The notes beneath the pieces were generated by a model that saw only the letters and a program-made list of their open reading frames with translations, was not told the DNA's origin and did no database searches. From Candidatus Eremiobacteria bacterium (lineage in GTDB: Bacteria; Vulcanimicrobiota; Vulcanimicrobiia; Vulcanimicrobiales; Vulcanimicrobiaceae): a stretch of 64,000 nucleotides of DNA. This document shows, piece after piece, positions 6,158-45,104 of the stretch (its first letter is position 1; every line of letters begins with the position of its first letter). A program made the position numbers and the translations under genes. Location of the stretch: positions 640,001 to 704,000 of the forward strand of contig CAVTRC010000001.1 of NCBI GenBank assembly GCA_963737065.1, read 5' to 3'.

Positions 6158-6160
6158 CGC

Positions 6161-6958
6161 TCACACGCGGTCGGTGACGCGCACGGTGATCGTCGTGTCG
6201 AAAACGTGCTCGGCAGGCCCCGTCATAAACGCACGTCCCGCCGCATCGATTGCGACGAGCAAATCGCCGCCCGGCACATGGATCGCGACCGGCGAAACGA
6301 CGCCTCCGCGCGCGATACCGGCCGCCGCGCATGCCACCGCGCCCGTTCCACAAGCCAGCGTGAATCCCGCACCGCGCTCGTAATGGCGCACCCGCATCGC
6401 GTGCCGGTCGTCGATCACCGCGACATGAATGTTTGTGCCGGCGGAAAACACCGCGTCGCGCTGGAGGTCTTCACCCAAAGCGACGAGATCAGCATCGTCA
6501 AGCGATGAACGAAAGAGCACGACGTGCGGGTTACCAACATCGACGGCGACCGCATCACCGATCGGAACTGCGACATCGAGCAGACGCGGGGCGCCGATTT
6601 CGACACGCACGCGATAAATTTCGCCGCGATCGATCACCGACGTGTGAATCGGTCCCGCCGCTGTTTCAATGACCAAACTGGCGCCTTCGCCCCGTTCGTC
6701 GAGATAGCGCGCGACGCAGCGAACGCCGTTGCCGCACATTTCCGCTTCACTCCCATCCGCGTTGATGACGCGCATCGACGCGCTCGCGCTCGATGAATCG
6801 CCGATGACCAGTAGGCCGTCGGCACCGATACCCGTGTGGCGATCGCAGAGACGGCGCGCGAGCGCGGCAAAATCGTCAAAAGAGAGTGCTCGCGCATCCA
6901 AGACGATGAAGTCGTTGCGCGCGCCGTGCATTTTCGTCACGGCAACGCGTTGGTTCAC
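6161..6958 (-). CDS. dapF: Diaminopimelate epimerase
   Basis: KMHGARNDF, GIGADG, NADGSEAEMCGNG, GNPH, ERGAGFTLACGTG; GTG overlaps the hfq stop. Confidence 0.96.
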   Translation of the reverse strand: MNQRVAVTKMHGARNDFIVLDARALSFDDFAALARRLCDRHTGIGADGLLVIGDSSSASASMRVINADGSEAEMCGNGVRCVARYLDERGEGASLVIETAAGPIHTSVIDRGEIYRVRVEIGAPRLLDVAVPIGDAVAVDVGNPHVVLFRSSLDDADLVALGEDLQRDAVFSAGTNIHVAVIDDRHAMRVRHYERGAGFTLACGTGAVACAAAGIARGGVVSPVAIHVPGGDLLVAIDAAGRAFMTGPAEHVFDTTITVRVTDRV

Positions 6959-7203
6959 GACGAAACGCCGCTCTCCACGACCGGCGGTTCCGGCGCGACC
7001 GCCACGGCAGCCGATGGCGAAATCGTGGAAATTGCGTGCTTGTAGATCAAGTGCGTTTTCCGCTCGTATTCGAGCAGCACCGTGAATGGATCGAAGCCCT
7101 TCACCGTCCCGCGCAATTGAAAGCCGTTCATCAGGTACACCGTAACCTGCGTGCCGGCGCGTCTGCATTCGGCGAGAAACGTGTCCTGAAGGCTGATCGC
7201 CAT
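6955..7203 (-). CDS. hfq: RNA chaperone Hfq
   Basis: LQDTFL...VTVYLMNGFQLRG...FDPFTVLL...LIYKHAISTI (Sm1/Sm2); lies after miaA. Confidence 0.96.
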   Translation of the reverse strand: MAISLQDTFLAECRRAGTQVTVYLMNGFQLRGTVKGFDPFTVLLEYERKTHLIYKHAISTISPSAAVAVAPEPPVVESGVSS

Positions 7204-12944: not shown

Positions 12945-14342
12945 CTAGAGCAAACTAACGACAGGCTGCGCTATGCGCACGCCGGCGTCGTCGAAGCGCT
13001 GGGACCGTCGAACAACGGTTCCGGTGCATCCCCAGACGTGCGCAGTTGCCACATCGACATCGAGCCACGGCTCTCGCGCGTAGAGCGCTGGATCATAGTC
13101 GTCCGGCATCGGCGCAATCACCGTGACGTTATCGAGTGTCTTTGCCGCGAGCTTCGTCTCGTCTTTCTTTGAAGGACCAACGATGAGCGCGCGAACGGTC
13201 GTTCCGACCTTGCGATCGTGATAAGCGCGCGTCGACGCATTCTGCGCGTCGAGCAATCGTTTGAAACGCTCCGCCGCGACGTCGCCAGGCACTTGCGACC
13301 AACGCGCGGCCGGTGTTCCGCGGCGGATCGAGTAGATGAACGTAAACGCGTTACTGAAGACATTCGTCTTTACGTAGTCGAGCGTTGCTTGGAAATCCGT
13401 CTCCGTCTCGCCCGGGAAGCCGACGATGATGTCCGTCGTGATTGCCCAGTCGGGCAGATAGCGATGGATCGATTCTACTTTGTCGCGAAACTGCGCCATC
13501 GTATATTTGCGGTTCATCCGGCGTAGTATAGCGTCGCTTCCCGACTGCAAGGGCAAATGGACCCGCGGATTGAGTTGGCGAACCGCGGCGAGATCGGCAA
13601 CGATTTTTTCGGTAAAATCCTTGGGATGCGGTGAGATGAACGTCAGCCGTTCCAATCCGCGCACGGCGCCGACCGCTTTGCACAGATCGCCAAAGTCCTC
13701 ACGGGTTGCCGGATCTTTCCACGCGTTGACCGTTTGTCCGACAAGCATCACTTCGCGCGCGCCCGACGCAATCAGACCCTCGACTTCCGCGACGATCTCG
13801 CGCAGCGGCCGGTGATCGAAGCGTCCGCGAACGTGCGGCACGATGCAGAACGTACAATAGTACGAACAACCGCGCTGCACCGTCACGAAGCCGCGCAGAT
13901 GTGAAAACGCATCGGTCACCGCGTCGGCGGAACCGCCGAGCGGCATCAACAACGCGCGCTCGCCGGTGAAATCGATTTCGTCAAATGATGCGTGCCAGGA
14001 CTGCAGTTGGTCGCCCAACTGCACCAATTCTTTCGTGCCGAACACCGCATCGACGTGCGGCGCGAGTGTTTGCATGCGGTCGCGATCTTGTTCCGCCAAG
14101 CAGCCCGTCACGACGAGACGGACATCGGGATCAGCGTCCTTGAGCACCTTGAAGTGGTTCATACGCCCGTACGCACGCCGCTCCGCGTTGTCACGCACCG
14201 TGCACGTGTTGAGCACGACGACATTCGCTTTTTCGGGGTTCGATGCGATCTCGTAGCCGGCGGAAGCGGCACGATCCGCGATGTATTGCGAATCGGCTTC
14301 GTTCATCTGGCAGCCGAACGTCTCGATGTAAATTGTTGCCAT
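12945..14342 (-). CDS. miaB: tRNA-2-methylthio-N6-dimethylallyladenosine synthase MiaB
   Basis: ETFGCQMNEADS, NTCTVR, GCLA, GCSYYCTFCIVP, HLPLQSGSD, DIIVGFPGET. Confidence 0.95.
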   Translation of the reverse strand: MATIYIETFGCQMNEADSQYIADRAASAGYEIASNPEKANVVVLNTCTVRDNAERRAYGRMNHFKVLKDADPDVRLVVTGCLAEQDRDRMQTLAPHVDAVFGTKELVQLGDQLQSWHASFDEIDFTGERALLMPLGGSADAVTDAFSHLRGFVTVQRGCSYYCTFCIVPHVRGRFDHRPLREIVAEVEGLIASGAREVMLVGQTVNAWKDPATREDFGDLCKAVGAVRGLERLTFISPHPKDFTEKIVADLAAVRQLNPRVHLPLQSGSDAILRRMNRKYTMAQFRDKVESIHRYLPDWAITTDIIVGFPGETETDFQATLDYVKTNVFSNAFTFIYSIRRGTPAARWSQVPGDVAAERFKRLLDAQNASTRAYHDRKVGTTVRALIVGPSKKDETKLAAKTLDNVTVIAPMPDDYDPALYAREPWLDVDVATAHVWGCTGTVVRRSQRFDDAGVRIAQPVVSLL

Positions 14343-17904: not shown

Positions 17905-18594
17905 TCAGCGGCAACGATTGACGAGCGGTTGAACGAGCGCGCGCACTTCCGACTCTTCGACGCCGATTCTATACTGTGTGAGCGCGACGTCGACGGCAAT
18001 GTTTCCGTACGCGTCCGCCGAGATCAAATTACCATACGAGAAGTCTTTCGGAGCGCGGAGCCGCGTTTCACTTGCTTGTGTCGTTTGAACGGTGCGGTCT
18101 TGTTGCGCGTCGGGACGGACCATCGCTGCCATGGGATTCTTGAAGTTTTCAATGTCCGCAAGCTCCTGTGTGTCGGCCGTCCCCGAAAACTCGTTCAGTG
18201 AGTCCGCCTGAAGGTCCGCAACCACCGATAGCCGCGCACCGAGCGAAGCAACTTCGTGCGCTTCTTGAGGATCCTTGAGCGCGACGGTTGCGAGTTTTTC
18301 GAGCAGCGCATGGATCTTGATGTTGTTTGCGGCTACGTCGTCGACGACGTCCAAAAGGTGCACGTTATCCGCTTCAACCCATCCGTCGCTCTGCGCGACG
18401 TCCATTTTGGCCATGTCTTGTAAGAGCTCGCGCCCTCGGTCGATCATGCCGTCCTGAATAAAAAGGCCTTGGATCGACGGCGCGACGATCGTGCGCACGG
18501 CATTGCACAGTACCGACGTTTTCGTCGTCACGATGATCGGCAGCGGAGTCGCCGGCGCGGCGGGAACGACTACGGCAAGTAGTAACGCGAGCAT
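17905..18594 (-). CDS. Secreted, mostly helical hypothetical protein
   Basis: GAGGGA RBS, ATG 18594, short hydrophobic signal, PAAPATP linker, one Cys near each end. Confidence 0.7.
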   Translation of the reverse strand: MLALLLAVVVPAAPATPLPIIVTTKTSVLCNAVRTIVAPSIQGLFIQDGMIDRGRELLQDMAKMDVAQSDGWVEADNVHLLDVVDDVAANNIKIHALLEKLATVALKDPQEAHEVASLGARLSVVADLQADSLNEFSGTADTQELADIENFKNPMAAMVRPDAQQDRTVQTTQASETRLRAPKDFSYGNLISADAYGNIAVDVALTQYRIGVEESEVRALVQPLVNRCR

Positions 18595-18756
18595 CGTACT
18601 TCCCTCATATGATTGCGCTGCTCTGCGCGAACGCTTCGCGATTGCGCTCGGTGACGCGTGATAGGTACCATGCCGGGGTTTTGCTCGTGGCGCGTAACAC
18701 GTCAACGGCTCCCGCGAAAGTCACCTGTGTAAAGAGTCCGTAAACTATTAGGACCA

Positions 18757-19230: not shown

Positions 19231-19713
19231 ATGTATTGGTACTGCCGGGCATTTCTTTTGTCTTTTTTTGCAATCGTCGGCACGACGGCGGCGATGGCGG
19301 CCGCACCGAACGTCACGCTGCGGCTCGACGCCGCACTCGTTCACGTCGTAAACGGCAAGGTGACGACATCGGCTGTCGATCGTCCGCTCAAGGCCGGTGA
19401 CGTGATCGAATATCGCATCGTTGCGCGTAATGCCGGCAATGCCTCGGCGTTGGCGTTTTCGCCCCTAGGGAAAGTTCCCGCGCATACCGAGTTTTTGCAA
19501 AATGAAGGCGCGAGTCGCGCGGCGCGCGCTTCATATACGCTCGATGGAACGCATTGGTCGGAACATCCCATGGTCCGTGCAGTGAAATCGTCGGGACACG
19601 TCGTTATGGAACCGGCGCCGCGCTCGCTCTATCGCGCGGTGCGATGGACGCTCTCGGGCGCGCTCGTGCCGTCGCAAACGGCGACGTTCGCGTATGAAGT
19701 GCGCGTGCAATGA
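19231..19713 (+). CDS. Secreted single DUF11-like Ig domain protein (candidate chaperone or cap of a fibre system)
   Basis: Signal peptide; LKAGDVIEYRIVARNAG, VPAHTEF, SYTLDG, VRWTL...LVPSQTATFAYEVRVQ. Confidence 0.8.
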   Translation: MYWYCRAFLLSFFAIVGTTAAMAAAPNVTLRLDAALVHVVNGKVTTSAVDRPLKAGDVIEYRIVARNAGNASALAFSPLGKVPAHTEFLQNEGASRAARASYTLDGTHWSEHPMVRAVKSSGHVVMEPAPRSLYRAVRWTLSGALVPSQTATFAYEVRVQ

Positions 19714-22187
19714 AACTCCACCGGTCTCTTGCGGCGGCGGGCGCGTTTGCGCTCGCCGTTCAACTCACGTCGCCGCTCACGGTTAATGCCGCGAACGGCC
19801 ACGACGACCCCGGAACGCAGGTGACGAACACCGCGAACGCAGTCTATAAAGACGCCGGCGGAAACTCGTACACCACCACCTCCAATACGGTAACGGTGAC
19901 GGTGCAAAACGCGCCGACTCTAACGAATACGCCGGGCACCGGTTCCCCGTATGCGCCGGGACAGGTCGTAACCGACACGTTCGTGCTCACGAACACCGGT
20001 AACGGCGCGGGCACGTTCCAAGTCTCCGATACGTCATCCGCGCCTACGGCGAGCTCCGATGCGGTGCTCGGCGGAAGCGATGCGGCAGCGGCGACGCTCG
20101 GCAACGGCGCGGCGACGTGCACGACACCCGCCGGCTCGCAATCGGCGCCGTGCAAATACGCGGCGACGGTCGGCGGCACGACATACTATTTCACGAGCCT
20201 CAATGGAACGAGCGACAACAACTCGCTCGACTATTGGCTACTCCACACGAATCCGGCGACCGCCGCAGGTTCGTCGATCACCGTCTCCGTGTACTACGCG
20301 CTCGCGACGAGTGCTTCGACGCCCGCGACGGTAACATCGAGCATCTACGCATCGGTGGCGTATCCTGCCGCAGGCAGTGCGCCTGCTACGACGTCGTCCT
20401 CTGTCAACGCAACGGAGTCGAATACCGTTACCGCGGACGCGCGCCTCGACTTGTACAAGGCGAGCAGTCAGAATCCGGCGACCGGCGACATCACGTACAC
20501 GGTCTCTGCGCACAACGGAGGCGCGTTTGCCGCGAAGGATCTGCAATCGGTGAAAGCGCTGCTCGGCAGTGCGACTGCGGGCGTGCTGATCTCCGACAAG
20601 GTTCCGCAGTTCGGTGGGTCGCCGCTTTCGCTCAGCAATTCGGGCACGGTCACCGTTACGCCGAACGCGACGTATGGATTTGCGACCGGCGCGACGGCCG
20701 ACCTGTATTACTCGACGTCGGCAACCGGTACGACTAGCTGGACGAAAGCGACAGGAAATCTTCCGACGGACGGCAGCGTAACCTACGTTGCAATCTTCAT
20801 TCACGGTGGGACCTGCACGAGCGCCGGATACGAGCTGTGCGCGGACACCGGTCATGCGACGACGCCCGGTAACAGCAACGTTGCCTCCGCTGCGGCGATT
20901 GCGTTCTCGTTCACGGTCGTTCAGCCGAGTGGGCCCGGATCGGCCAACGCGAACGCAGTCAAAAACCTCGCGAACGGTGTCATCGGCGACAACCAGTCGA
21001 CGGAGCACATACTCGGACCGGGCATTCCGGGCGGAACGGCCGATACGCCATCGGCGACGCCCATCACAACGAGCGGTCAAGGCATAAACAACACCACGAA
21101 CACCTCGACGAACGGCGCGTCCAATCAGATCGGAAATCAAGCCCTTGCGTCGTACGCGCCGCAAAACGGTCCGTTCGGACAACCGGCCGCCGTTGGGTCG
21201 TATGACGGCGTCGTCGGATCGAATGGATCCAACGATTTCACAGCGTTTCCTTTCGGTCTCGCGGGCGATAGCGTCGTTAATACGAGTACGACGGTGGGAT
21301 CACCGGTAACCGCGGCAACGCTGGGCTCCGCGCAAACGATCTGCGTCGCGCATACGCTCAAAAACAACGGGAATCACGACGACTCGTTCAACATCGTCGC
21401 CACCGTTCCAACGGCATACCAGGTTCCGTCGACCAGCGGTGGAACTGCGGTCGCCGGCTGGAAGACCGGCGTTTATTCCGATGCGGCGTGCAGCGCCGCG
21501 CTCGGCGGATCGACCGACGGATCGCCGGCGGCGACCGCATCGAACGTTGCGATCGCCTCGGGCAACTCGCTCAACTATTACGTGAAATACGTCATTCCAG
21601 CGGGAGTGAAGTACTTCTACCGCTTTGACGCTTCGATCGTTGCGACCAGTGTCGGCAGCGGTTCGCAAAGCGACTCGACGCACGATGAACTTTACTCGGG
21701 ATTCGTCGCGCTCACGAAATCGCAGAATGTCACGAGCAACGGTTGCCCTTCGGGTGTGTCGCCGTCGTATGCAGCCGGCACCGTCTGTCCGACCGGCGTG
21801 ATCGCCTACACGGTCGACTATCGCAACCTCGTGATGGGCACGAGCAGCACCAACATCTCGTTCAACGCGTGCACGACGCAAGCGGGATCGTTGCAGATAA
21901 CGGATGACGGCACGCTCTCGACATCCAGCTCGACGACCACCGTCGCCAATTGGGCATCGTTTGCATCAATGACGGCCGCTCCGTCGGACTCGAGCGCCTC
22001 GTCGTCGTTCACGTACGCCACCGGCGTTCCCGCGGCCGGCGCAAGCCCGACGTGGAGTGCGGCGGCGACGAAGTTTGTCGACACGGTCGGTGGCTCGTCG
22101 TTCCAACTCGTTCCAAAAAACTACAGCGGTCCGTCGGCAACGCAAGGCAATCAGGGGACGGTGACGTTCTCCATCGCGGTGAAGTAA
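19710..22187 (+). CDS. Secreted Ser/Thr/Gly-rich multi-Ig DUF11-type protein (candidate major fibre subunit)
   Basis: Signal peptide; N-terminal PGTQVTNTANAVY...SNTVTVTV; internal LDLYK...ISDKVP...VKNLAN; C-terminal ALTKSQ...GVIAYTVDYRN...GTVTFSIAVK; ATGA overlap. Confidence 0.8.
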   Translation: MKLHRSLAAAGAFALAVQLTSPLTVNAANGHDDPGTQVTNTANAVYKDAGGNSYTTTSNTVTVTVQNAPTLTNTPGTGSPYAPGQVVTDTFVLTNTGNGAGTFQVSDTSSAPTASSDAVLGGSDAAAATLGNGAATCTTPAGSQSAPCKYAATVGGTTYYFTSLNGTSDNNSLDYWLLHTNPATAAGSSITVSVYYALATSASTPATVTSSIYASVAYPAAGSAPATTSSSVNATESNTVTADARLDLYKASSQNPATGDITYTVSAHNGGAFAAKDLQSVKALLGSATAGVLISDKVPQFGGSPLSLSNSGTVTVTPNATYGFATGATADLYYSTSATGTTSWTKATGNLPTDGSVTYVAIFIHGGTCTSAGYELCADTGHATTPGNSNVASAAAIAFSFTVVQPSGPGSANANAVKNLANGVIGDNQSTEHILGPGIPGGTADTPSATPITTSGQGINNTTNTSTNGASNQIGNQALASYAPQNGPFGQPAAVGSYDGVVGSNGSNDFTAFPFGLAGDSVVNTSTTVGSPVTAATLGSAQTICVAHTLKNNGNHDDSFNIVATVPTAYQVPSTSGGTAVAGWKTGVYSDAACSAALGGSTDGSPAATASNVAIASGNSLNYYVKYVIPAGVKYFYRFDASIVATSVGSGSQSDSTHDELYSGFVALTKSQNVTSNGCPSGVSPSYAAGTVCPTGVIAYTVDYRNLVMGTSSTNISFNACTTQAGSLQITDDGTLSTSSSTTTVANWASFASMTAAPSDSSASSSFTYATGVPAAGASPTWSAAATKFVDTVGGSSFQLVPKNYSGPSATQGNQGTVTFSIAVK

Positions 22188-22191
22188 CGAC

Positions 22192-24297
22192 GTGAACCGC
22201 TTCGGTTGGATCGCGGCGATCGTGCTGTGCGCTCTTGCAGCACAGCACGTCGCCGCGTCCCCGACCGGCGGAACGAGCATCGTGAACGAAGCGTCCGCAA
22301 CGTATAGCGATGTCTTCTCGCACGCCTATCAGACCACTTCCAATGCGATCGTCTCGCAAGTCGTGAGCCTCTCGTCGCTCGTCGTCTCGCCGAAACAAAA
22401 TGCGGCGGCACCGGCGTCGGATACGGTTGCGGTGAACGCATCCGCCACGCGCGTCTTCACGATCACCAACACATCGAACATCACCGACGCGTATCGCATC
22501 ACGAGTCTCCAGACGGGGCCACTCGGCGTTACGTCGATTGCATGGATCACACCGCCGGGATCGCTCGCCACGGCGGTCAACGGGAGTGCATCGCCCCAGA
22601 TCGGGCCCGGTTCATCGATCTCCGTTCGCGTGACGCTTTCTACGAGCGGACTCAACGTCGGCCAGTCGGTTCCGATCGCGCTCACCGCGCAGACGACGGT
22701 GACGCAGACCGGAAACGGTCTCGCGCACGATAGCGGTATGGAATGGGTGATCGGTGCGACGGGCCCGCACTTTTCGGGGCCGGCCGGTGCAAACACCACC
22801 GTCCTGAAGACCGTAAATAATGCGAGGCAGGTACAGACCCAACCGGGCGCAACCGTGACATTTCACATTGCTGCACTCAATAGCGGCGGCGCCGCGGCGA
22901 CGAACGTGCAGATCAGCGATCCGGTACCGGCGGGGTTGCGGGTTGATCTGTCATCGGCAGAGTTGAACGGTCAACCCGCGGGCGCGCAAGCGTCACTGAG
23001 CGGAAACACAATCGTGTTTCGCGTTCCGTCGATCGGCGCCCAGCAAAGCGTCGATGCGACGTTCAACGCGATCCTTCCGCCGGGAGAATCGCTCGGCGAG
23101 TCCTTCGTGAACGTCGCGACGACAGCCGCAGACGGCATTCCCGCAACCGCAACGACTCCCGCCGATGTTTTTTCTGGTTCATCGAACATCGTCTTCGATG
23201 GTTTTGCGGGTGCTGGACATCCGATCGCCGGCGCGGTTATCGCGCTGCTCGATGCGAACGGGAAACCGGTCGGAATCAACGCGCCGAATCCGTCGGTTAC
23301 CGGACCGGACGGCAAGTACGCGCTCCCGCTTTCAGTTCAACTGATTCCCGCAGCGGGCGCGCATTTTACGCTGACGATTTCGGCACCGTCGTATCTAAAC
23401 CGGCGCATCACCCTGGTGATTACGCCCACCGCGAACGGGTTCTACAACGTCTCCGAAACATCGGCTGACGCGCAACCGATCGCGGCGGCCGGCGGCTTCA
23501 CCCTCACGATGAACAACGTTCATCTTCAAGACGTCTTCGGGCTGTTCGGCAACCTGCCGCTCTTCGCGCTCAGAACGATCTCCGTCACGAAGACGTCCGA
23601 CAAACAAGCGGCGTCTGCGGGGGACCGGGTGATCTTCACACTCGGTCTGCAAAATCAAACGACGTTTGGAATCGCGAACGTTCGTGTCGTCGATACGATG
23701 CAAGCCGGATTTGCGTATCTGAACGGAACGGCGAGAGTTGACGGGCTTCCACTCGAACCGCTGGTATCTGGACGCACGCTTTCGTGGGTCTTTTCATCGA
23801 TTGCACCGGCGCAGATGCACACGATCACCTATGGCGCAACGATCGTGCCCGGCGTTGCTGCGGGAAGTACCCTTGCGAACAGCGTTTCGGTGAACGGCAG
23901 CGCGGCGATCGGCGGCGTGAATACCGGCGCTTCCGCAAGTACGAGCGTGATGGTCATCGACGGCGTGCTTTCCATGCGCCGCGTCGTGACCGGTAGAGTA
24001 TTCTTCGACGACGCGCATCGCGGTTATTTCGTGCGCGGCGACCGCGCGATCTCCAGCGTTCGCGTCGTCCTTGAAGACGGTTCGTTCGCGATCACCGATT
24101 CCGGCGGCGCGTTTTCGTTTCCGTCCGTTCGCCCCGGATTGCATGTCGTGCGAATCGATCCGCTGACGTTGCCGGCGTCCGCGCGCGCACAGAGTGATGC
24201 GCCGATGAATTCCAGTCGCTCGTACGAGCAGCTATTGCACGGCGTGCTCGACGACGGAACGATGGAAGACGTCGAATTTGCGGTGGCACCGCGATGA
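22192..24297 (+). CDS. Secreted protein with two DUF11 domains and a C-terminal SdrD-B/carboxypeptidase-regulatory-like domain (candidate base subunit)
   Basis: GTSIVNEASATY; VLKTV...QISDPVPAGL...FVNVA; VTKTSDK...VVDTM...LANSV; GRVFFDD...LEDGSFAITDSGGAFSF..VRPGLHVVRID. Confidence 0.8.
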   Translation: MNRFGWIAAIVLCALAAQHVAASPTGGTSIVNEASATYSDVFSHAYQTTSNAIVSQVVSLSSLVVSPKQNAAAPASDTVAVNASATRVFTITNTSNITDAYRITSLQTGPLGVTSIAWITPPGSLATAVNGSASPQIGPGSSISVRVTLSTSGLNVGQSVPIALTAQTTVTQTGNGLAHDSGMEWVIGATGPHFSGPAGANTTVLKTVNNARQVQTQPGATVTFHIAALNSGGAAATNVQISDPVPAGLRVDLSSAELNGQPAGAQASLSGNTIVFRVPSIGAQQSVDATFNAILPPGESLGESFVNVATTAADGIPATATTPADVFSGSSNIVFDGFAGAGHPIAGAVIALLDANGKPVGINAPNPSVTGPDGKYALPLSVQLIPAAGAHFTLTISAPSYLNRRITLVITPTANGFYNVSETSADAQPIAAAGGFTLTMNNVHLQDVFGLFGNLPLFALRTISVTKTSDKQAASAGDRVIFTLGLQNQTTFGIANVRVVDTMQAGFAYLNGTARVDGLPLEPLVSGRTLSWVFSSIAPAQMHTITYGATIVPGVAAGSTLANSVSVNGSAAIGGVNTGASASTSVMVIDGVLSMRRVVTGRVFFDDAHRGYFVRGDRAISSVRVVLEDGSFAITDSGGAFSFPSVRPGLHVVRIDPLTLPASARAQSDAPMNSSRSYEQLLHGVLDDGTMEDVEFAVAPR

Positions 24298-27200
24298 AGC
24301 GGTTGGGAAGAGCGTTGCAGTGTGCGGGCGCCGCGCTTATGGTCGCGTCGTTTATGACGTCGATGACGACCCGCGTTTCCGATGCCGATACGGCGGCCGG
24401 CGCGGCGACGGCAACGTTCGTCGCGCCGAACCCGGGCAGCGCTGCGCCGATCGGCGCAACCAACGTCATCATCTCGACCCAACTCGGCAGTTCGATCGAG
24501 TTGCTCGACGACGGCGAACTCGTCGACGGAAAGCACCTCGGTAAGCGAACGTTCAACAAATCGACCGGCGAGGCGCAATGGTTTTTCTACGGCGTCACAT
24601 TGCACCCGGGACCGAACGAACTCGTCGCGACCGCGCTCCGCGCGCCCGGGTTACGTGGAACGCCGGCGACATTGACCGTCTATGGACCCGGTGACGCGCA
24701 GACAATTCGCGCGGAGTTCGGATCGCATTTACGTGCCGATGGAAAAACGATCGCTCCGCTCAATATTACGGTCAGCGACCGGTACGGCAATGCTGCGGCG
24801 CCCGCGCAACGTGTGGACGTGCGAATTTTGCGCGGAAACGTAACCTTCGGCGATCTGCCGAAAGACGGTACGAACGCCGCACCGGCGTCGCCGGACGTTC
24901 TCACTTCGCCCGCGCCGCAGGGCGCGCTTTCCGCGCAAGTGCCGCTTCCCGTCGGTGGATATCTGTCGCTTCCCGTCGTGTCGGGAACGCTCGCCGGCGC
25001 ATTCGACATCGAGGTACGCGTCGGCAACGCGTATCTTCGGCGTTCGTTCTACGTCGAGCCATACGTTCGCCCCGCATTCGTTACGGGGCTTGCGTCGGTC
25101 GGCGTCGGCGCCGTCCCGGGTGACGTCGACGGCGACGGTATCGAAGACGGCGGCGGAGCGCGCCGCGAGCGCGCAGCGATTTTCGCAACGGGAGCCGTTG
25201 GACGCACGCTCGTGACCGCCGGCTACGAATCGCAAAACCGTCTGTCGCCCGTTTCGTCTCTCGGTGCGCCGGTCGATTCGCCCAATAGCCGTCCGTATTT
25301 GACGTACGGCGACAGCTCGACGATCGCACAGCCGTATCGCTCGCAAGATCACTTCTACGCGCGCGTGGATCGCGGAAGGTCGAGCGCATTGTGGGGGCAG
25401 TACGTTGCGGACGTCGGGCCACCGGACGTGGGCGGATATCAGCAGCTCTTGAACGGCGCGAAGGTCGATGTGTCGCTCGGTGCGAGCGGACGCGCGCGTG
25501 TAACCGCGTTTACCGCGCGCAATCAGCAAGCGTTCATTTCGACGATTCTTCCGTTGACGGGACTCGCCACGCTTTCCGCACCGCTTCACCCCGACATCGT
25601 CGTCGGCTCGGATCTGCTGCAGTTGGTGACGCTCGACCGCGCGACGGGTTTGATGATTCGAGAGACACCACTCTTGCGAAACGTCGACTACACAATCGAT
25701 TACGCGACGGGCATCCTGCGTTTCATCAACGTACCGCTACCGTACGACCCGCAGTTCAATCCGCAAGTCGTCTCGCTGCAATACGAATACCAGGGGCCGG
25801 GCGTCGCATCACAGACGACCGGTGCGCAGGTCAGCTACGCGCTTTCCCTCGACGGCCGCACGACGGCCCGTGCAGGTTACGTCAACGACGCAACCGGAAC
25901 GCAAAATTTCGCGCTCGTCACACAATCGCTAGCGCGGACATGGGCGAACGGATCGTTTACCGTTTCTCATGCTTCCAGCGCCGGGTTCGTTCCGAGCGCC
26001 GGAAGCTCGACGCAACTGGGCGCGGCGACCGTGGTGCCGCATAACGGCGAAGCGATCTCCGTCGCGCTCGATGAACGGAATGCCACGAATGCCGTTGCGC
26101 TCGGATATCAGTCGACTAGCGCGGGTTATAACGATCCGTTCGGTGGATTCAGCTCGCCCGGAACGCGCGCATATCGTGCGATCTATTCACTCGGCACGGC
26201 GCGTGCCGGTCAACTGCAAATGAACCTCTCGGGTGAAAGTAACACCGGCATCGGAGCGGCAAGCAGCGAGCTCGACGGTGCGGTGACGTACCTGCGCGCC
26301 CTCACGTCCCGCTTGACGATGAGCGCGGGCGTTGCCGAGCATCGCCAAACGATCGGGGCGCAGCCGTCGGCGTCTCCCGCTGCGAACGTCGCATTAGCGA
26401 ATACGCAGCAGACGCAGGCGCAGGCATCCCTCACCTACCGCATGCCGGAGCGTCTCGGCATTTCGGTTTCGGAATCCGACACGCTGCGCGGCAGTGATGC
26501 GGGCTCAACGCAACCGTCTCAGACGCAACTCGAAGCGACGTACGACTTGCCAAAGCGCGGCCGTTTGTTCTTCCGCGAACTTTGGAGCGATCAACCGTCG
26601 GCGACGTTTGCGAATTCAACGGCAAATCTCAATATCGCGTCGGGCTCGACCCATTCGATGCAATTCGGGGTCGAACAGCCGCTCTCGGCGGCAACGACGG
26701 TTAGCTCGCAATACGTCATCGATCAAGTCGCGTCGGGCGTGAATATCTATGCCGCGGCAGGCATTGACGAACGCGTGCATCTCGGCAAAGCAATTGCCGG
26801 AAACTTGACGTTGCAATCGGCAAACGCAGTTGGCGCGGGAGCGGAGGGATTCACCGTTCTCGGTGCCGCGCTCACATACGCGCCGGCGAGCGGGAAGTTT
26901 CGCAGTTCGGTTTCGTATCAAGATCGAACGGGCGCGTCGTCCGGATCGACCGTTTCCGCGGCAATCGCAGGTCATATCAGCGACGCTCTCTCAGCGGTGG
27001 GCTTCATTCAACGCGCATACGGCAACGGGATCAACGCGATCGACGATCGGTTGTCGGTTGCGTATCGTCCGCGCGCCGACGATCGCCTCATCTCACTCTT
27101 CGATTACGAGCGAGGCAACGAGACCGGGCTCGCCGGTGAAGCGGCGAACGTCGCCTCGTTCGAAGAGTTGTTTCGCATGACGCAGACCTTTGAACTCGCC

Positions 27201-27527
27201 GGCCGGTTTGCATACAAATTCGACGGCGGCGGCGAGTACGCGGCGCGCACCGTGCTGTGGTTGGGACGCGCAACGCAGCATGTCGGCTCGCGCGGTGATG
27301 TCGCGCTCGAGGCGCGGACGGCCATCGTTCCGGGCGCGACCGGCGCACGCACGACCGCCGTCGCCGCCGAAGCCGGCGAGACCATTGGGCGCACGGCGCG
27401 CGCCGCGGTTGGTTACAACATCGCCGGAAGCGTCGATCCGTCGCTGCTCGGCGTCCCGCAACGCAAAGGCATCTACATAACCTTCACAACGCTGATCGAT
27501 CGTATCTTCGGGTGGGGAAAACCATGA
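24294..27527 (+). CDS. Large outer-membrane beta-barrel protein with periplasmic Ig-like domains (candidate secretion/assembly platform)
   Basis: Signal peptide; LRADGK...ITVSDRYGN Ig-like motif; YLTYGDSS; LLRNVDYTIDYATGILRF; several hundred aa of alternating Y/F/G-rich strands; ATGA overlaps at both ends. Confidence 0.75.
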   Translation: MKRLGRALQCAGAALMVASFMTSMTTRVSDADTAAGAATATFVAPNPGSAAPIGATNVIISTQLGSSIELLDDGELVDGKHLGKRTFNKSTGEAQWFFYGVTLHPGPNELVATALRAPGLRGTPATLTVYGPGDAQTIRAEFGSHLRADGKTIAPLNITVSDRYGNAAAPAQRVDVRILRGNVTFGDLPKDGTNAAPASPDVLTSPAPQGALSAQVPLPVGGYLSLPVVSGTLAGAFDIEVRVGNAYLRRSFYVEPYVRPAFVTGLASVGVGAVPGDVDGDGIEDGGGARRERAAIFATGAVGRTLVTAGYESQNRLSPVSSLGAPVDSPNSRPYLTYGDSSTIAQPYRSQDHFYARVDRGRSSALWGQYVADVGPPDVGGYQQLLNGAKVDVSLGASGRARVTAFTARNQQAFISTILPLTGLATLSAPLHPDIVVGSDLLQLVTLDRATGLMIRETPLLRNVDYTIDYATGILRFINVPLPYDPQFNPQVVSLQYEYQGPGVASQTTGAQVSYALSLDGRTTARAGYVNDATGTQNFALVTQSLARTWANGSFTVSHASSAGFVPSAGSSTQLGAATVVPHNGEAISVALDERNATNAVALGYQSTSAGYNDPFGGFSSPGTRAYRAIYSLGTARAGQLQMNLSGESNTGIGAASSELDGAVTYLRALTSRLTMSAGVAEHRQTIGAQPSASPAANVALANTQQTQAQASLTYRMPERLGISVSESDTLRGSDAGSTQPSQTQLEATYDLPKRGRLFFRELWSDQPSATFANSTANLNIASGSTHSMQFGVEQPLSAATTVSSQYVIDQVASGVNIYAAAGIDERVHLGKAIAGNLTLQSANAVGAGAEGFTVLGAALTYAPASGKFRSSVSYQDRTGASSGSTVSAAIAGHISDALSAVGFIQRAYGNGINAIDDRLSVAYRPRADDRLISLFDYERGNETGLAGEAANVASFEELFRMTQTFELAGRFAYKFDGGGEYAARTVLWLGRATQHVGSRGDVALEARTAIVPGATGARTTAVAAEAGETIGRTARAAVGYNIAGSVDPSLLGVPQRKGIYITFTTLIDRIFGWGKP

Positions 27528-29050
27528 CGCGGCTATTGATGCGTCTCGTGGTCGCGGCGGCGTTCGCGATCGTGACGTGCGCGTTTGCGAGCGCCTCGAC
27601 GATCATGGTCTTGAGCGACAGCGCGGGCGTCTATTTGATCGATTCCGCGACCGGCAAAGTCGTTCAGTCGTACGGCAACCTCTTCTCCGGAAGCAGCGCG
27701 CAGGACGTCGCTGAAGACCTCAACGGCAACCTGTACGTGACCGATAGCTCCGGCAACCTCCGAAAGGCGACGTTCAACGCGAACGCCGGATCGTCGACCG
27801 GCGCGTATGCCGCGGCGACCGTCGTCGGCGCGATCCCCGGATATACTTCCGCGGTTGCGCGTCTTGCGTGGGATCCCACCACGTTGTATTGCGCGACCGG
27901 CTGCCTCGTGACGATGAACAGCAGCGGAAATTCGCTCGATTGGATCAATCCGGCGACGGCCGCCATCGTAAAAAGCGTCGCGGTGAGTCCGGCCATCTCG
28001 GGTGGCGGCGACCTTGTCATCGACCCCACTGCGGTGAACAACGCGGCCGTCTACGTCGTCTCCGGAAAAGCGTTTTACAGCGTCAATCCGTCGACGGGCG
28101 CGTCGACCTCGATCGCGACGTTTTCGTGGCCGGGGCTCACGGCGAATCTGACGGGACTTGCGCTCCTGGCGAACGGCGATCTGGTTGGATGCGAACAAAA
28201 AGGCAGCGGAACGGCCTGGACGCTTTGGGAATTCACGACCGCCGGAGCGCTCGTCACGAGCCAAACGGGCATTAGCACCGGAAGCGACGTGGTGAACGAC
28301 CTCGCTTCGGTTCCGGCGACGTTCACGACGTCGAAAACCGGCACCGCGAATGCGGGCCTCGGCGACACGATGATTTATACCGTCACATTGAAGAACACGA
28401 GTTACTTCACCGTGCCGACGGCCGCGATGACCGACCCATATCCTTCGACGATCAGCGTTTTATCGTCGCCGGCGCCGTCGTGCAGTGTTTCCGGCGGCGG
28501 CAGTTGCACCGCGACGCTGAACCCGAGCGCAAGCCCTTCGCCCGACGTTGTCGCAAGCGTTACGAACTTGGCCGCCGGCGCAACCGCCACGATGACGTTC
28601 GAAGGTTCACCGAGCGCGAGTGCGAGCGGGACCGTCTCGAACACGGCAAACTCGAGCGTTCCGTTCGATCCCAACGAGTACGGCGGCTCGACCGCTGCAA
28701 CGAACACCATCAACACAACGATCACGGCGTCCGAATTTGCGAAACAGGTAGCAAACATCACGGAGGGCCTTGCGCCGGGCACGAGCTTGATCGGCAAACC
28801 GGGTGATGTCGTGGAATACACCCTGACGTTCACGAACCGCCGCGGCTTTTCGCTGGCGTCCTTTCAAATCAACGACCCGGTGCCGACGGGAACGACGTAC
28901 GTCGCAAACAGCGCAACGTGCATAAGTCAGCCCGCGGGGCTCACCTGCGCGCCGTCGCAGTCAGGCGGCGTCGTGTCGTTTGTTTACACCGGCACGAGCT
29001 TGGCCGCCAACGGCGTCGTCAGCGCAAAGTTCCGCGTAACGATCAACTAA
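27524..29050 (+). CDS. Secreted beta-propeller + two DUF11 domain protein (candidate tip adhesin)
   Basis: Repeated blades (LIDSATG, DLNGNLYV, INPATA, VNPSTGA); TTSKTG...MTDPYP...VSNTA; FAKQV...PGDVVEYTLTFTN...INDPVPTGTTYV...AKFRVTIN. Confidence 0.8.
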   Translation: MTRLLMRLVVAAAFAIVTCAFASASTIMVLSDSAGVYLIDSATGKVVQSYGNLFSGSSAQDVAEDLNGNLYVTDSSGNLRKATFNANAGSSTGAYAAATVVGAIPGYTSAVARLAWDPTTLYCATGCLVTMNSSGNSLDWINPATAAIVKSVAVSPAISGGGDLVIDPTAVNNAAVYVVSGKAFYSVNPSTGASTSIATFSWPGLTANLTGLALLANGDLVGCEQKGSGTAWTLWEFTTAGALVTSQTGISTGSDVVNDLASVPATFTTSKTGTANAGLGDTMIYTVTLKNTSYFTVPTAAMTDPYPSTISVLSSPAPSCSVSGGGSCTATLNPSASPSPDVVASVTNLAAGATATMTFEGSPSASASGTVSNTANSSVPFDPNEYGGSTAATNTINTTITASEFAKQVANITEGLAPGTSLIGKPGDVVEYTLTFTNRRGFSLASFQINDPVPTGTTYVANSATCISQPAGLTCAPSQSGGVVSFVYTGTSLAANGVVSAKFRVTIN

Positions 29051-31182: not shown

Positions 31183-31608
31183 GTGCCAGATCAATCCGGA
31201 CGCGGCCTTCCGCCGCGGATCTACGTTCCGATCGTCGCAGTCCTCGCCATCGCTTTCCTCGGCGTAATGTTTTACCTCGTCGCGGTCGGTTTCGGTGTAA
31301 CGGGTTCAGTCTTCGGCAACGCAGCGCCGAATGGAACGCAAGCTCAGGCGCCGTCTTCGGGAACGAACGTGCAAGGTGGTGGACCGCCGCCCGCGGTGAT
31401 GCTACAGGTCCAGACGCTCAAAGCACGCGTCGCCGCACATCCAAAAGACGACGTCGCGTTGACGCAGCTCGGCGATCTCTATCTCGCGGCGAACAAGTTC
31501 CAACAAGCGATTCCGCTCTACCGGCGTGCGCTCGATGCGAACCCGCGAAACGTTGCCGCGCAGACCGGGCTCGCGCAAGCGCAAGAGGACCTTCGTCAAT
31601 CGCAATGA
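31183..31608 (+). CDS. Membrane-anchored tetratricopeptide repeat protein
   Basis: N-terminal TM; PKDDVALTQLGDLYL...AIPLYRRALDANP.N..A..GLA. Confidence 0.8.
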   Translation: MPDQSGRGLPPRIYVPIVAVLAIAFLGVMFYLVAVGFGVTGSVFGNAAPNGTQAQAPSSGTNVQGGGPPPAVMLQVQTLKARVAAHPKDDVALTQLGDLYLAANKFQQAIPLYRRALDANPRNVAAQTGLAQAQEDLRQSQ

Positions 31609-32435
31609 GGCTCTACATTAGCGCCGACATGGAAGGTACGGCCGGCGTCTGTTCCTGGGCGCAGGTCGATCCGTGCAACGTCCACGAGTATCCCGTGTAC
31701 CGCCGGTATATGAGCCGCGAAGTCGCCGCCGCGATCGCCGGCGCGCGCGAATCGCAGCCGTGCGACGTGACGATCAACGACTCGCACTGGGATATGCGAA
31801 ATCTCGTGTGGGACGAGTTGCCGGAGGACGTTCGCGTCATCTCCGGACGCAAACCGCTCTCGATGGCGCACGGCGCGCAAGATCGGTTTGATGCTGCATT
31901 CTTCACCGGATACCACAGCGCAGCCGGTACAGCCGGCTCCGTGCTCGCGCATACATATTCGAACGAAGTGATGTATAACGTCTACGTTAACGGAAAGGCG
32001 TGCACCGAAGCTTTGCTCAACGCCGCGCTTCTCGGCGTGCACGGCACGCCCGTAGCAATGGTCACCGGCGACCGCGCGCTCGTCGAAACGACGCTTGCCG
32101 ATCTGCCGTGGGCGACGGGCGTGATCGTGAAAGAGTCGATCGGATACTACGCCGCAAACTCGCTCACGCCGCAAGCAGCCTGCGATGCAATTCGTTCGGG
32201 TGCGCGCGAAGCGATTCAATCCGCGTCGCGCGCGAAACCATTCACGTTTGAGCCGCCGGTCGAGCTCGTGATCGAGACGGCCGGCGTCGAACACGCCGAC
32301 TTCATCGAGTTGCTTCCGCGTTTCGAACGCACCGGGGGACGCAGCGTAAGATTCGCAAGCGACGATTATGCAACGGCGTTCAACGCCTTTCTCGTTGCGA
32401 TGCGTCTCGGTGGCGCGGCCAATCTACCGGCATGA
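31605..32435 (+). CDS. M55 family D-aminopeptidase (DppA-like), paralog 1
   Basis: YISADMEG, INDSH, FFTGYH, LAHTY, E..LNA, GD. Confidence 0.92.
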   Translation: MRLYISADMEGTAGVCSWAQVDPCNVHEYPVYRRYMSREVAAAIAGARESQPCDVTINDSHWDMRNLVWDELPEDVRVISGRKPLSMAHGAQDRFDAAFFTGYHSAAGTAGSVLAHTYSNEVMYNVYVNGKACTEALLNAALLGVHGTPVAMVTGDRALVETTLADLPWATGVIVKESIGYYAANSLTPQAACDAIRSGAREAIQSASRAKPFTFEPPVELVIETAGVEHADFIELLPRFERTGGRSVRFASDDYATAFNAFLVAMRLGGAANLPA

Positions 32436-33256
32436 AACTGTACATTTCGAGCGACATGGAAGGCGTTGCGGGCGTAACCGCGTGGCAGCAAGTCGATGCC
32501 CGTACGCCGCACCCCGAGTATCACATGTACAAGCAGCACTACACACGCGAGGTTGCAGCGGCGGTGCGCGGCGCGCAACGCAGCGGCGCGTCCGACGTGA
32601 CGATCAACGATTCGCATGGTCCGATGCGAAACTTCGTCTTCGAAGAATTGCCCCGCGACGTTCGCGTCATCTTCGGAAACCGCAAACCATACTCGATGGT
32701 GCAAGATTGCGACGGCGGATACGCAGGCGCGTTCTTCATCGGCTATCACGGCGGCATCGGTGACGCCGACGCCGTCCTCTGCCATACGTACACGCCGTCG
32801 GTCATCTACGAGACGCGGCTCAATGGCATGATATGCAGTGAAGCAACGCTGAACGCGGCGGTCCTCGGGTATCACGGCGTCCCGTTGCTCTACGTCACGG
32901 GCGACCGCACGACCGTTGACGGCGTGCAACGGCAGATGCCCTGGGTGCGCGGCACGATCGTGAAAGAGTCCATCGGCAACTTTGGCGCGAATACGATGTC
33001 GCCCGCTGCAGCCCAGCGTGCGATCGAAGAGGCCGCGGCTGCGGCCTTTGCCGCACGCGCCGACGCCGAACCATTCATCATCGAATCGCCGATCGCGCTC
33101 GAAATTACGCTCGCAAAAGTGGAGCAGGCGGATTATGTCGCAATGATCCCCGGATTTGACCGAACCGGTCCGCGCGCGGTTCGCTTTGTCGATGAAGACA
33201 TGCTGACGATTTTCAAAGCGTTCGTCGCGGTCTTCCGGCTCGGCATGATCGCATAA
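32432..33256 (+). CDS. M55 family D-aminopeptidase (DppA-like), paralog 2
   Basis: YISSDMEG, INDSHG, FFIGYHG, LCHTY, SEATLNA. Confidence 0.92.
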   Translation: MKLYISSDMEGVAGVTAWQQVDARTPHPEYHMYKQHYTREVAAAVRGAQRSGASDVTINDSHGPMRNFVFEELPRDVRVIFGNRKPYSMVQDCDGGYAGAFFIGYHGGIGDADAVLCHTYTPSVIYETRLNGMICSEATLNAAVLGYHGVPLLYVTGDRTTVDGVQRQMPWVRGTIVKESIGNFGANTMSPAAAQRAIEEAAAAAFAARADAEPFIIESPIALEITLAKVEQADYVAMIPGFDRTGPRAVRFVDEDMLTIFKAFVAVFRLGMIA

Positions 33257-44904: not shown

Positions 44905-45104
44905 CGTTCTCCTACCGTCCACAACAAACAAAAGCCGCGTCTGTTCCTTCAGTGAGTCAACGTAGACTATACGGCCGCGAGGCGAAAATTGATTCATACC
45001 TTGGGCCGCAAACCTGAAAACAGCCTGTTATGCTGTTCGTCGCTTCCGCGTTACCTTCGGTAACTCCCGAGGAGCGCGTGGGGTTTCCTCGTATCCTCCC
45101 CCGC

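Follow-up and report, generated by a model that had tools for sequence, protein, structure and literature searches.

Positions 19231-29050 (+ strand) of a 64,000-nucleotide stretch from a Candidatus Eremiobacteria bacterium (assembly GCA_963737065.1, contig CAVTRC010000001.1, positions 640,001 to 704,000; the whole stretch is called the window below) hold five tightly packed open reading frames (ORFs), numbered here as genes 1 to 5. We propose, with a probability of roughly 60%, that they encode a new, sortase-independent surface fibre of a diderm bacterium, in which donor strands and isopeptide bonds join the subunits. The domain family concerned, DUF11, has been renamed CLIPPER; its crystal structure (9IFR) is CnaA-like and contains an intramolecular Lys715-Asn806 bond beside Asp748 (PMC12617251; this and the other literature statements below follow excerpts of the sources cited). 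The DUF11/CLIPPER triad of Lys, acid and Asn lies in one chain, and this is also the case in the internal domains of the proteins studied here. Their terminal domains depart from it: the acceptors carry only the Lys and the acid (in gene 1 neither), and the donors carry only the Asn. This departure is the finding reported here.

Each joint of the fibre would be a single DUF11/CLIPPER (CnaA-like) isopeptide domain split between two chains. The C-terminus of the distal partner would contribute strands A to F, which include the Lys and the catalytic acid (the acceptor), and the mature N-terminus of the proximal partner would give the last two strands with the Asn (the donor). Insertion of this donor hairpin would bury Lys, Asn and acid and so lead to a spontaneous Lys-Asn isopeptide bond, as in complete CLIPPER domains; because the bond is expected to form spontaneously, the joints would be covalent without a sortase. 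The order outwards would be the barrel (gene 4), the base (gene 3, held by or fused to the barrel), at least one shaft subunit (gene 2) and a tip of the gene 5 class. The barrel would be the outer-membrane anchor and probably the exit pore too. By analogy with chaperone-usher pili, and in view of the fusion of base and barrel described below, growth may proceed tip-first and base-last through the barrel, ending when the base hairpin attacks the last acceptor. Gene 1, which has neither Lys nor acid, may reversibly hold donor hairpins in the periplasm, or may cap the fibre or serve as a default tip. In this scheme we infer that the halves pair in trans and are joined covalently, that a fibre contains more than a single shaft copy, which way it grows, and what gene 1 and the pore do; the gene layout, the domain truncations, the complementary coverage of the profile, the conserved residues, the fusion of base and barrel, the distribution and the beta-rich model of gene 4 are observed.

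Complementary truncation of the terminal domains

A 138-position profile of a complete domain, built from residues 455-592 of gene 3 and orthologues, served as the reference. The acceptors stop at about positions 94-97 of this profile and the donors span about positions 99-136, which bears out the complementary split put forward in an earlier interpretation of the window (hereafter the sequence-only reading). The residues named in that reading were also correct. They are N40 of the gene 2 donor; K670 and ITDDG (D732) of the gene 2 acceptor, which terminates at GTVTFSIAVK without an Asn strand; N32 of the gene 3 donor; and K407 and INDPVP (D451) of the gene 5 acceptor, which ends in AKFRVTIN (numbering from the ATG). 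C-termini of the gene 5 type span positions 18-94, and the chain stops there (hhalign 97.9%, E 5.4e-13). In mature form, the products of genes 2 and 3 each begin with a two-strand hairpin that maps to positions 99-136 with Asn on Asn, the gene 2 hairpin itself aligning to positions 102-135. When acceptors of the gene 5 type (type B) were joined to the shaft donor of the same locus (10 of 12 rows), the alignment extended from positions 18-94 (77 columns, score 79.6) to positions 18-119 (99 columns, score 86.9). In the joined alignment Asn falls on Asn, and a gap of 3 residues separates the two parts; a control with a column-shuffled donor covered positions 18-103 and scored 79.3. PDB searches with alignment profiles of the gene 2 and gene 4 families gave nothing useful.

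Gene 2 holds both halves and is the putative shaft subunit, with a donor hairpin and an acceptor domain of a second kind (type A). Five residues of its hairpin (N40, A42, S58, N59 and V65) are invariant among 39 orthologues, and the internal triad K250/D296/N419 is kept in at least 90% of the same set. No Pfam or NCBIfam family matches gene 2, and sequence and profile searches of the PDB found no relative, the sole weak match being apolipoprotein D (E 0.15). Its homologues (n = 71) are all named "hypothetical" at source, except for one "beta strand repeat-containing protein". The last residue is Lys in 45 of 58 type-A acceptors (in gene 2 at window 22182-22184), and the gene-1 family likewise ends in ...VRVK.

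Since gene 2 holds both halves in one chain, the hairpins might complement in cis, either on their own first domain or, in gene 2, on its own C-terminal domain, and the locus would then encode five separate surface proteins that share an operon. We consider this very improbable. The gene 3 hairpin comes without an acceptor, and the acceptors of genes 5 and 1 come without a hairpin. The first domains after the hairpins, as read from their sequence, own their final strands, and the order of a hairpin followed by strand A is that found where one tandem domain passes into the next. Moreover, four phyla keep the split.

Gene 1 is a secreted protein with a single DUF11-like domain that ends before the Asn strands. 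Its match to Pfam PF01345 (DUF11) reaches 16.7 bits, below the cut-off of 24.6, and there is a weak match to TIGR01451 as well. The gene-1 family spans positions 12-97 of the 138 in the complete-domain profile, after which the protein ends (hhalign 96.8%, E 2.3e-10), and in this alignment Gly occupies the position of the catalytic Asp. The family alignment (n = 43) contains no conserved first-strand Lys and no conserved catalytic Asp, and its C-terminal end is YEVRVK*. As judged from these alignments, gene 1 is a third, non-crosslinking acceptor-type protein, which had no place in the sequence-only reading. Its most likely role, for which it is a candidate, is that of a periplasmic chaperone or cap that reversibly binds donor hairpins, or else that of a default tip.

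Putative base, outer-membrane barrel and tip

Gene 3 carries a donor and no acceptor and would be the base subunit. Its order is donor hairpin, DUF11-type domain, CarboxypepD_reg-like domain, DUF11 domain, and SdrD_B-like domain with a tail. The DUF11 family of Pfam matches it with 62.5 bits (same cut-off of 24.6), and it carries the RrgB-D2 isopeptide domain of NCBIfam (TIGR04226; 49.1 bits against a cut-off of 30); a PDB sequence search gave nothing useful. Asn occupies the N32 column in 46 of 47 sequences, with Ser in locus L042. The internal triads that had been noted beforehand are real and conserved: K206/D243/N307 and K467/D501/N563 are each kept in 45-46 of the 47 orthologues. The C-terminal tail of gene 3 is the part that adjoins the barrel in fused relatives, and it also ends the giant adhesins of loci L052, L055 and L058.

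Gene 4 encodes a putative very large outer-membrane barrel. In an AlphaFold2 (AF2) model built with 38 sequences (pLDDT 74.1, pTM 0.59), a helix in the signal peptide region (residues 2-20) precedes a pair of Ig-like domains and a succession of hairpins whose strands are 7-15 residues long. AF2 and Foldseek thus agree with the earlier assignment of an outer-membrane barrel to this gene. Foldseek found no global match in the PDB (TMq <=0.21); the best barrel matches were LptD and MtrB, no usher was among the matches listed, and the N-terminal Ig pair resembles intimin D00-D0 (TMt 0.41). Sequence and profile searches of the PDB were empty, and no Pfam family matched, including autotransporter, intimin and TonB-dependent receptor families. 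SprA of the type IX secretion system (TIGR04189) was considered and rejected, the match amounting to 11.3 bits over 24 residues against a cut-off of 200. Homologues of gene 4 (147 matches) come from metagenome-assembled genomes (MAGs) of Eremiobacterota/Vulcanimicrobiota, and every name given at source is "hypothetical". A profile of the gene 4 alignment matched 3,351 representative clusters at E <=0.001, and 1,382 at E <=1e-30.

Base and barrel are fused in many members of this family. The best 150 representatives of the barrel family include 62 proteins of more than 1,400 aa; 58 of these 62 have a gene-3-like N-terminal part, and 37 have an N-terminal donor match. Protein P0160 (1,924 aa) corresponds to gene 3 over residues 23-734 (E 1e-76) and to mature gene 4 over residues 805-1880 (E 3e-64), and gene 3 aligns end to end with its N-terminal 734 residues. 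Relatives of P0160 occur in Pyrinomonadaceae and other Acidobacteriota under the names "TIGR01451 repeat protein", "SdrD B-like" and "hypothetical" (taxa of distant barrel representatives were taken from source names and plasmid records). Because P0160 joins both proteins, genes 3 and 4 form one functional unit, and because the two are fused in many relatives, gene 3 is placed at the barrel-proximal end of the fibre. This supports the base end of the tip-shaft-base order that had been suggested, and the N-terminal hairpin of gene 3 would then point outwards from the cell.

A chain that contains both base and barrel has the layout of a passenger and its barrel, and the locus shows neither a periplasmic chaperone of known type nor an energy source. 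Both points favour an account in which the barrel anchors only the base, as in an autotransporter, with shaft and tip reaching the surface by some other route and adding distally. We find this doubtful, as about 40 long strands far exceed what is needed to hold one chain, the operon encodes no other exporter, and if the fibre grew distally, free subunits would have to locate its end in the extracellular space.

At the far end of the proposed fibre would stand gene 5, a putative tip composed of a variable N-terminal head, one complete DUF11 domain (PF01345, 41.0 bits, again above the cut-off) and a C-terminal truncated acceptor. Type-B acceptors (n = 12) have the Lys in 12/12 and the Asp in 12/12. 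For the beta-propeller previously proposed in the head of gene 5, the sole Pfam match is DUF5074, which lies below its cut-off (E 0.0012). In 30 of the 49 loci with at least 3 kb of downstream DNA, the gene after the barrel has a type A or type B acceptor at its C-terminus and a variable head. The comparison indicates that the fifth gene combines a head that varies with an acceptor that is conserved, which extends the account given by the sequence-only reading. Two loci, L019 (11713-17293) and L039 (13216-16791), have two acceptor-ending genes in succession after the barrel, with different heads. This arrangement suggests alternative tips for one fibre.

Conservation of the split system and weighing of the evidence

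A scan of one genome per species yielded 65 loci, nearly all from Eremiobacterota MAGs. Survey of these loci demonstrated that the donor/acceptor pattern is kept among them, as the proposal of a split domain had anticipated, and that it recurs in cyanobacterial and Acinetobacter plasmid loci. For 48 loci at least 5.4 kb of DNA upstream of the barrel was available, and 38 of them have genes 1, 2 and 3 intact there; among the other 10, five have genes 1-3 broken or partly undetected and five are of a shaft-less variant. The hairpin motif with its Asn is found in 42 of 43 gene-2 orthologue N-termini, the 43rd having been seen separately, and in 46 of 48 gene-3 orthologues, the exceptions being one with Ser and one giant variant without a hairpin. 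The background of this motif is 5 matches in 5,153 other ORFs (983,675 aa).

The acceptors are conserved to a similar degree. In an alignment of 58 type-A acceptors, the K670 column is Lys in 56 (41/43 shaft, 15/15 tip), the D732 column is acidic in 56 (41/43 shaft, 15/15 tip), G734 is present in 58/58 and W748 in 57/58. The split-domain residues are therefore 96-100% conserved in homologues, about as well as the complete internal triads, and the Lys, acid and Asn singled out in the sequence-only reading have held up. A hidden Markov model (HMM) census of 5,318 ORFs showed that 73 of 76 type-A matches end no more than 6 aa short of the C-terminus, the remaining three being broken ORFs, and that 79 of 79 donor matches lie at the N-terminus, just past the signal peptide.

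The system extends to other phyla. A plasmid tblastn search with P0160 returned 49 records. On a plasmid of Synechococcus sp. NIES-970, a 910-aa shaft protein has a donor (E 1.6e-15) and a type-A acceptor (residues 747-909), accompanied by a 187-aa gene-1-like protein, a 509-aa base with hairpin, a 1,543-aa barrel and a 2,018-aa acceptor-ending protein. The Acinetobacter haemolyticus plasmid CP085288.1 (L066) encodes a gene-1-like protein, a 2,008-aa fused base-barrel with hairpin and a 978-aa acceptor-ending protein. Its shaft (4295-7129) is annotated as five short ORFs, and because of this division it is apparently disrupted. On this plasmid the fused base-barrel gene and the tip gene are separated by an OmpA-family gene (13252-14334), and beyond the tip gene comes a transposase. 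Atlas look-alikes of genes 1 and 4 come from Pseudomonadota, Acidobacteriota and Fidelibacterota and are leads only. By these comparisons the system is not restricted to one lineage, a breadth that a reading of a single window did not include.

Single-chain relatives are also found. In L052 (9932-18978), L053 (2523-12817), L055 (9722-18068) and L058 (9677-18015), the barrel adjoins one giant (1,790-2,450 aa) gene-3-like adhesin. These four loci have no shaft gene and no gene 1 and keep the base-type C-terminal tail; the giant adhesin N-terminus of L053, the one that was read, is without a donor hairpin. Such giant single-chain loci may represent a single-chain ancestor of the split system. On a Phyllobacterium sp. 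628 plasmid (L067, 1-13823), a barrel relative overlaps the end of a gene for a giant single-chain DUF11 protein of about 3,500 aa. This barrel relative and several other alphaproteobacterial plasmid matches are annotated as "TonB-dependent receptor". No TonB-receptor family of Pfam matched gene 4 or the 10 barrel relatives scanned, and for this reason the name is probably wrong.

The ends of the chains balance across these loci: there is just a donor in the base and just an acceptor in the tip, the shaft has both, and the giant single chain of L053 has no hairpin. A single shaft copy would satisfy this balance equally well. One may accordingly picture a fixed three-part adhesin of base, one adaptor (gene 2) and one tip, that is, a modular stalk with exchangeable heads and no repeating shaft; the variable and sometimes duplicated heads after the barrel (L019, L039) fit it, and the barrel-bound single-chain giants (L052, L053, L055, L058 and that of Phyllobacterium) make a non-polymeric ancestor plausible. 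We nevertheless judge it unlikely. The donor and the acceptor of gene 2 belong to the same pairing class, and the donors of base and shaft are so similar that one donor HMM finds both, so nothing visible blocks the joining of shaft on shaft.

Several observations weigh against the proposed covalent fibre. Matches of the donor profile are individually weak (E 0.07-10; hhalign E 0.0034, probability 9.5%), and joining donor to acceptor raises the score only modestly (+7.3). In the type-A acceptor, strand B alone aligns to the complete DUF11 profile (hhalign 47.5%); because this acceptor is not recognisable as DUF11 by profile or Pfam, its description as an incomplete Ig fold rests on analogy with type B and on its conserved Lys, acid, Gly and Trp. 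Its catalytic acid is ambiguous as well, the D732 column being D/E and the D733 column D/N. The model of gene 4 is of moderate confidence and has no close PDB match. Among the 19 of 49 loci in which no acceptor gene was detected after the barrel, three have a third acceptor type recognised by eye and four are giant-adhesin variants. Finally, the triad has exceptions: the acid is replaced by Asn in L037 and the Lys by Ala in L040, and L042 has Ser in the donor. In the shaft of L049 (5142-7682), Lys is replaced by Thr and the acid by Ala, and the donor Asn is kept. This coupled loss hints that Lys and acid work together, or that some lineages have abandoned the covalent lock. Because triad residues are missing in L037, L040, L049 and L042, the isopeptide bond cannot be universal.

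These four loci keep the rest of the system, and gene 1, as an acceptor-type protein without Lys or Asp, could bind hairpins only if non-covalent pairing is possible. Both facts would suit donor-strand complementation without a covalent lock, the triad serving for packing only or bonding inefficiently. Such an interpretation is distinctly unlikely in our view: the triad residues are 96-100% kept, like those of the complete CLIPPER domains in the same proteins, and the same triad forms a bond in CLIPPER (PMC12617251). The comparative evidence thus speaks well for the covalently locked tip-shaft-base fibre of the sequence-only reading, which we regard as supported in part.

Relation to known systems and surroundings of the locus

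Chaperone-usher pili are similar to the proposed fibre in that an incomplete Ig-like fold is made whole by a neighbour's N-terminal extension, an outer-membrane barrel is encoded in the operon, and one operon provides a tip with an acceptor only and a terminator with a donor only (PMC11821415). They differ in several respects. No PapD-like or usher family matches here, and many relatives have base and barrel in one chain. In place of a single donor strand there is a two-strand hairpin with a reactive Asn, and the joints are predicted to be covalent. Gene 1, being of acceptor type, would have a polarity opposite to that of PapD.

Intermolecular bonds of a comparable kind have been proposed elsewhere. 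In BsaA of Clostridium perfringens, a TasA-family protein assembled by "exchange and lock", the N-terminal donor strand with its Asn enters the next subunit near a Lys and an acid; the bond of this Asn to the acceptor Lys, with a Glu, was modelled and is supported by mutants, which lose oligomers (PMC11580942). Unlike the system described here, BsaA has a TasA/camelysin fold, a monoderm host and secretion through SipW and type-IV-pilus-associated machinery, and it has no outer-membrane barrel and no base or tip classes. Neither the five proteins nor those of neighbouring genes match a TasA/camelysin or SipW-type signal peptidase family of Pfam. The threads of Sulfolobus acidocaldarius (Saci_0406) are non-type-IV filaments that likewise combine donor-strand complementation with proposed intermolecular isopeptide bonds (PMC9715654). 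They differ in being archaeal and in their bond, which connects Asn57 of subunit n+2 with the N-terminal amine of Asp24 and does not involve a Lys-Asn-acid triad; they have no barrel, and no sequence relation was detectable.

Sortase pili of Gram-positive bacteria are covalent fibres of Ig-like CnaA/CnaB-type domains with internal Lys-Asn bonds, and TIGR04226, a domain family of these pili, matches gene 3. The bond between subunits here would, by contrast, be autocatalytic within a shared domain rather than an enzyme-made Thr-Lys linkage. The window's 58 main ORFs yielded no sortase, and the C-termini (...TFSIAVK, ...EFAVAPR, ...KFRVTIN) have no LPXTG sorting signal or hydrophobic tail. Type IV pili are not indicated either, as no prepilin-type families were found in the five genes or the other main ORFs of the window. 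As the sequence-only reading had seen, Pfam and NCBIfam detect no sortase, PapD, usher or type IV pilin family in the five genes; the 53 other main ORFs of the window have no match to a sortase, PapD-like chaperone, usher or pilin family.

SpyTag/SpyCatcher and DogTag/DogCatcher are engineered splits of isopeptide domains, in which a short strand-bearing tag and a catcher re-associate and bond spontaneously. These splits are man-made and concern CnaB-type domains; here a CnaA-like domain would be split naturally, its tag would have two strands, and the split would serve to assemble a fibre. The barrel of type V secretion systems has 12 strands. These systems resemble the fused relatives, which combine an Ig-repeat passenger and a barrel in one chain, and the Ig pair of gene 4 is like intimin D00-D0. 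They differ from the present system, in which no autotransporter or intimin barrel family is recognised, the barrel region comprises about 800 residues, and further subunits would be added through split domains. Single-chain CLIPPER/DUF11 adhesins, in turn, have the same domain family and triad and form secreted stalks of diderms (PMC12617251), and giant relatives occur on the same barrel family. All their domains are complete; in the system described here the terminal domains are split, and the intramolecular bond would become intermolecular.

Three further candidates proved unrelated: the "DUF11" match of Haloarcula tafi was to DUF1102 (PMC11821415), the Litorilinea grappling-hook protein is a single 6,596-aa chain (bioRxiv 10.1101/2025.08.19.671072), and a signal-peptide screen concerned strain PCC 11901 (PMC13297417). 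In the full-text literature searched, which excludes subscription journals and supplements and so leaves a prior description possible, we found no description of split DUF11 domains, of this barrel family or of such a fibre. A 2026 review of bacterial surfaces, in the excerpt consulted, lists chaperone-usher pili, type IV pili, monoderm sortase pili and curli as pilus classes and mentions isopeptide crosslinking only for sortase-assembled monoderm pili (PMC13721041). On the sequence evidence, the system is widespread and unannotated, and its parts are unrelated to known pilus machines.

If correct, the proposal would add a new assembly principle to the pili of diderms, namely covalent fibres made from a domain split between subunits, and would assign a function to a very large unannotated barrel family (the 3,351 representative clusters mentioned above). 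Among its carriers are Eremiobacterota and Acidobacteriota, phyla abundant in soil about whose surface biology almost nothing is known, and also a culturable, non-pathogenic cyanobacterium, Synechococcus sp. NIES-970. The system would further provide tag/catcher pairs that are natural and mutually specific, and structural biology would gain an unusually large barrel to examine. The broadest interpretation, to which we give somewhat less than even odds, is an unnamed class of diderm pili that spans phyla (Eremiobacterota, Acidobacteriota, Cyanobacteriota and, on plasmids, Pseudomonadota), with natural Tag/Catcher pairs, a barrel usher of about 40 strands with its own covalent terminator in the form of a fused or docked base, and a Lys-less gene 1 protein that silences donor hairpins in the periplasm. 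Strand insertion and autocatalytic Lys-Asn bonding would then drive and lock assembly without ATP, a sortase or a PapD-type chaperone.

The locus itself is compact. As described in the sequence-only reading, the genes are joined by ATGA overlaps at 19710, 24294 and 27524 and by a 4-nt gap (22188-22191), and all five products have Sec signals, which when read by eye are Sec type I-like, basic at the start, then hydrophobic, and with an AxA-like site.

Table 1. Coordinates of the five genes and of their putative functional parts in the window.
Feature	Window positions	Strand	Details
Gene 1 (P0001)	19231-19713	+	160 aa ORF
Gene 2 (P0002)	19710-22187	+	825 aa ORF
Gene 2 putative donor hairpin	19812..19904	+	residues 35-65, GTQVTN40...SNTVTVTV; Asn40 codon 19827-19829
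Gene 2 putative C-terminal acceptor (type A)	21687..22184	+	residues 660-825; Lys670 codon 21717-21719; Asp732 codon 21903-21905
Gene 3 (P0003)	22192-24297	+	701 aa ORF, GTG start
Gene 3 putative donor hairpin	22270..22362	+	residues 27-57, GTSIVN32...SNAIVSQV; Asn32 codon 22285-22287
Gene 3 C-terminal SdrD_B-like domain and tail	23971..24294	+	residues 594-701; weak Pfam SdrD_B match 602-665
Gene 4 (P0004)	24294-27527	+	1077 aa ORF
Gene 4 Ig-like domain pair (AF2 model)	24408-25058	+	residues 39-255, after signal peptide
Gene 4 about 40 long beta-strands (AF2 model)	25077-27497	+	residues 262-1068; small insert 441-478
Gene 5 (P0005)	27524(ATG)-29050	+	508 aa from ATG; alternative GTG at 27512
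Gene 5 putative acceptor (type B)	28721-29047	+	residues about 400-508; Lys407 codon 28742-28744; Asp451 codon 28874-28876

The upstream flank contains the housekeeping genes mutS, miaB, der, plsY and efp together with a TauE exporter, and fumC lies downstream on the opposite strand. The G+C content is even throughout the five-gene region, and promoter and terminator scans performed no better than on shuffled sequences. A 266-aa ORF on the - strand (17905-18705), 525 nt upstream of gene 1, has a hydrophobic N-terminal segment and no Pfam match. Elsewhere in the window (42170-44994, - strand), a TolC-like OEP gene (42170-43639, E 1.5e-51) adjoins a gene for an HlyD-type membrane-fusion protein; this TolC-like outer-membrane efflux gene shows that the organism builds an outer membrane, a point in favour of the proposed diderm fibre. 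Two overlapping D-aminopeptidase (Peptidase_M55) paralogues lie in tandem at 31605-33253.

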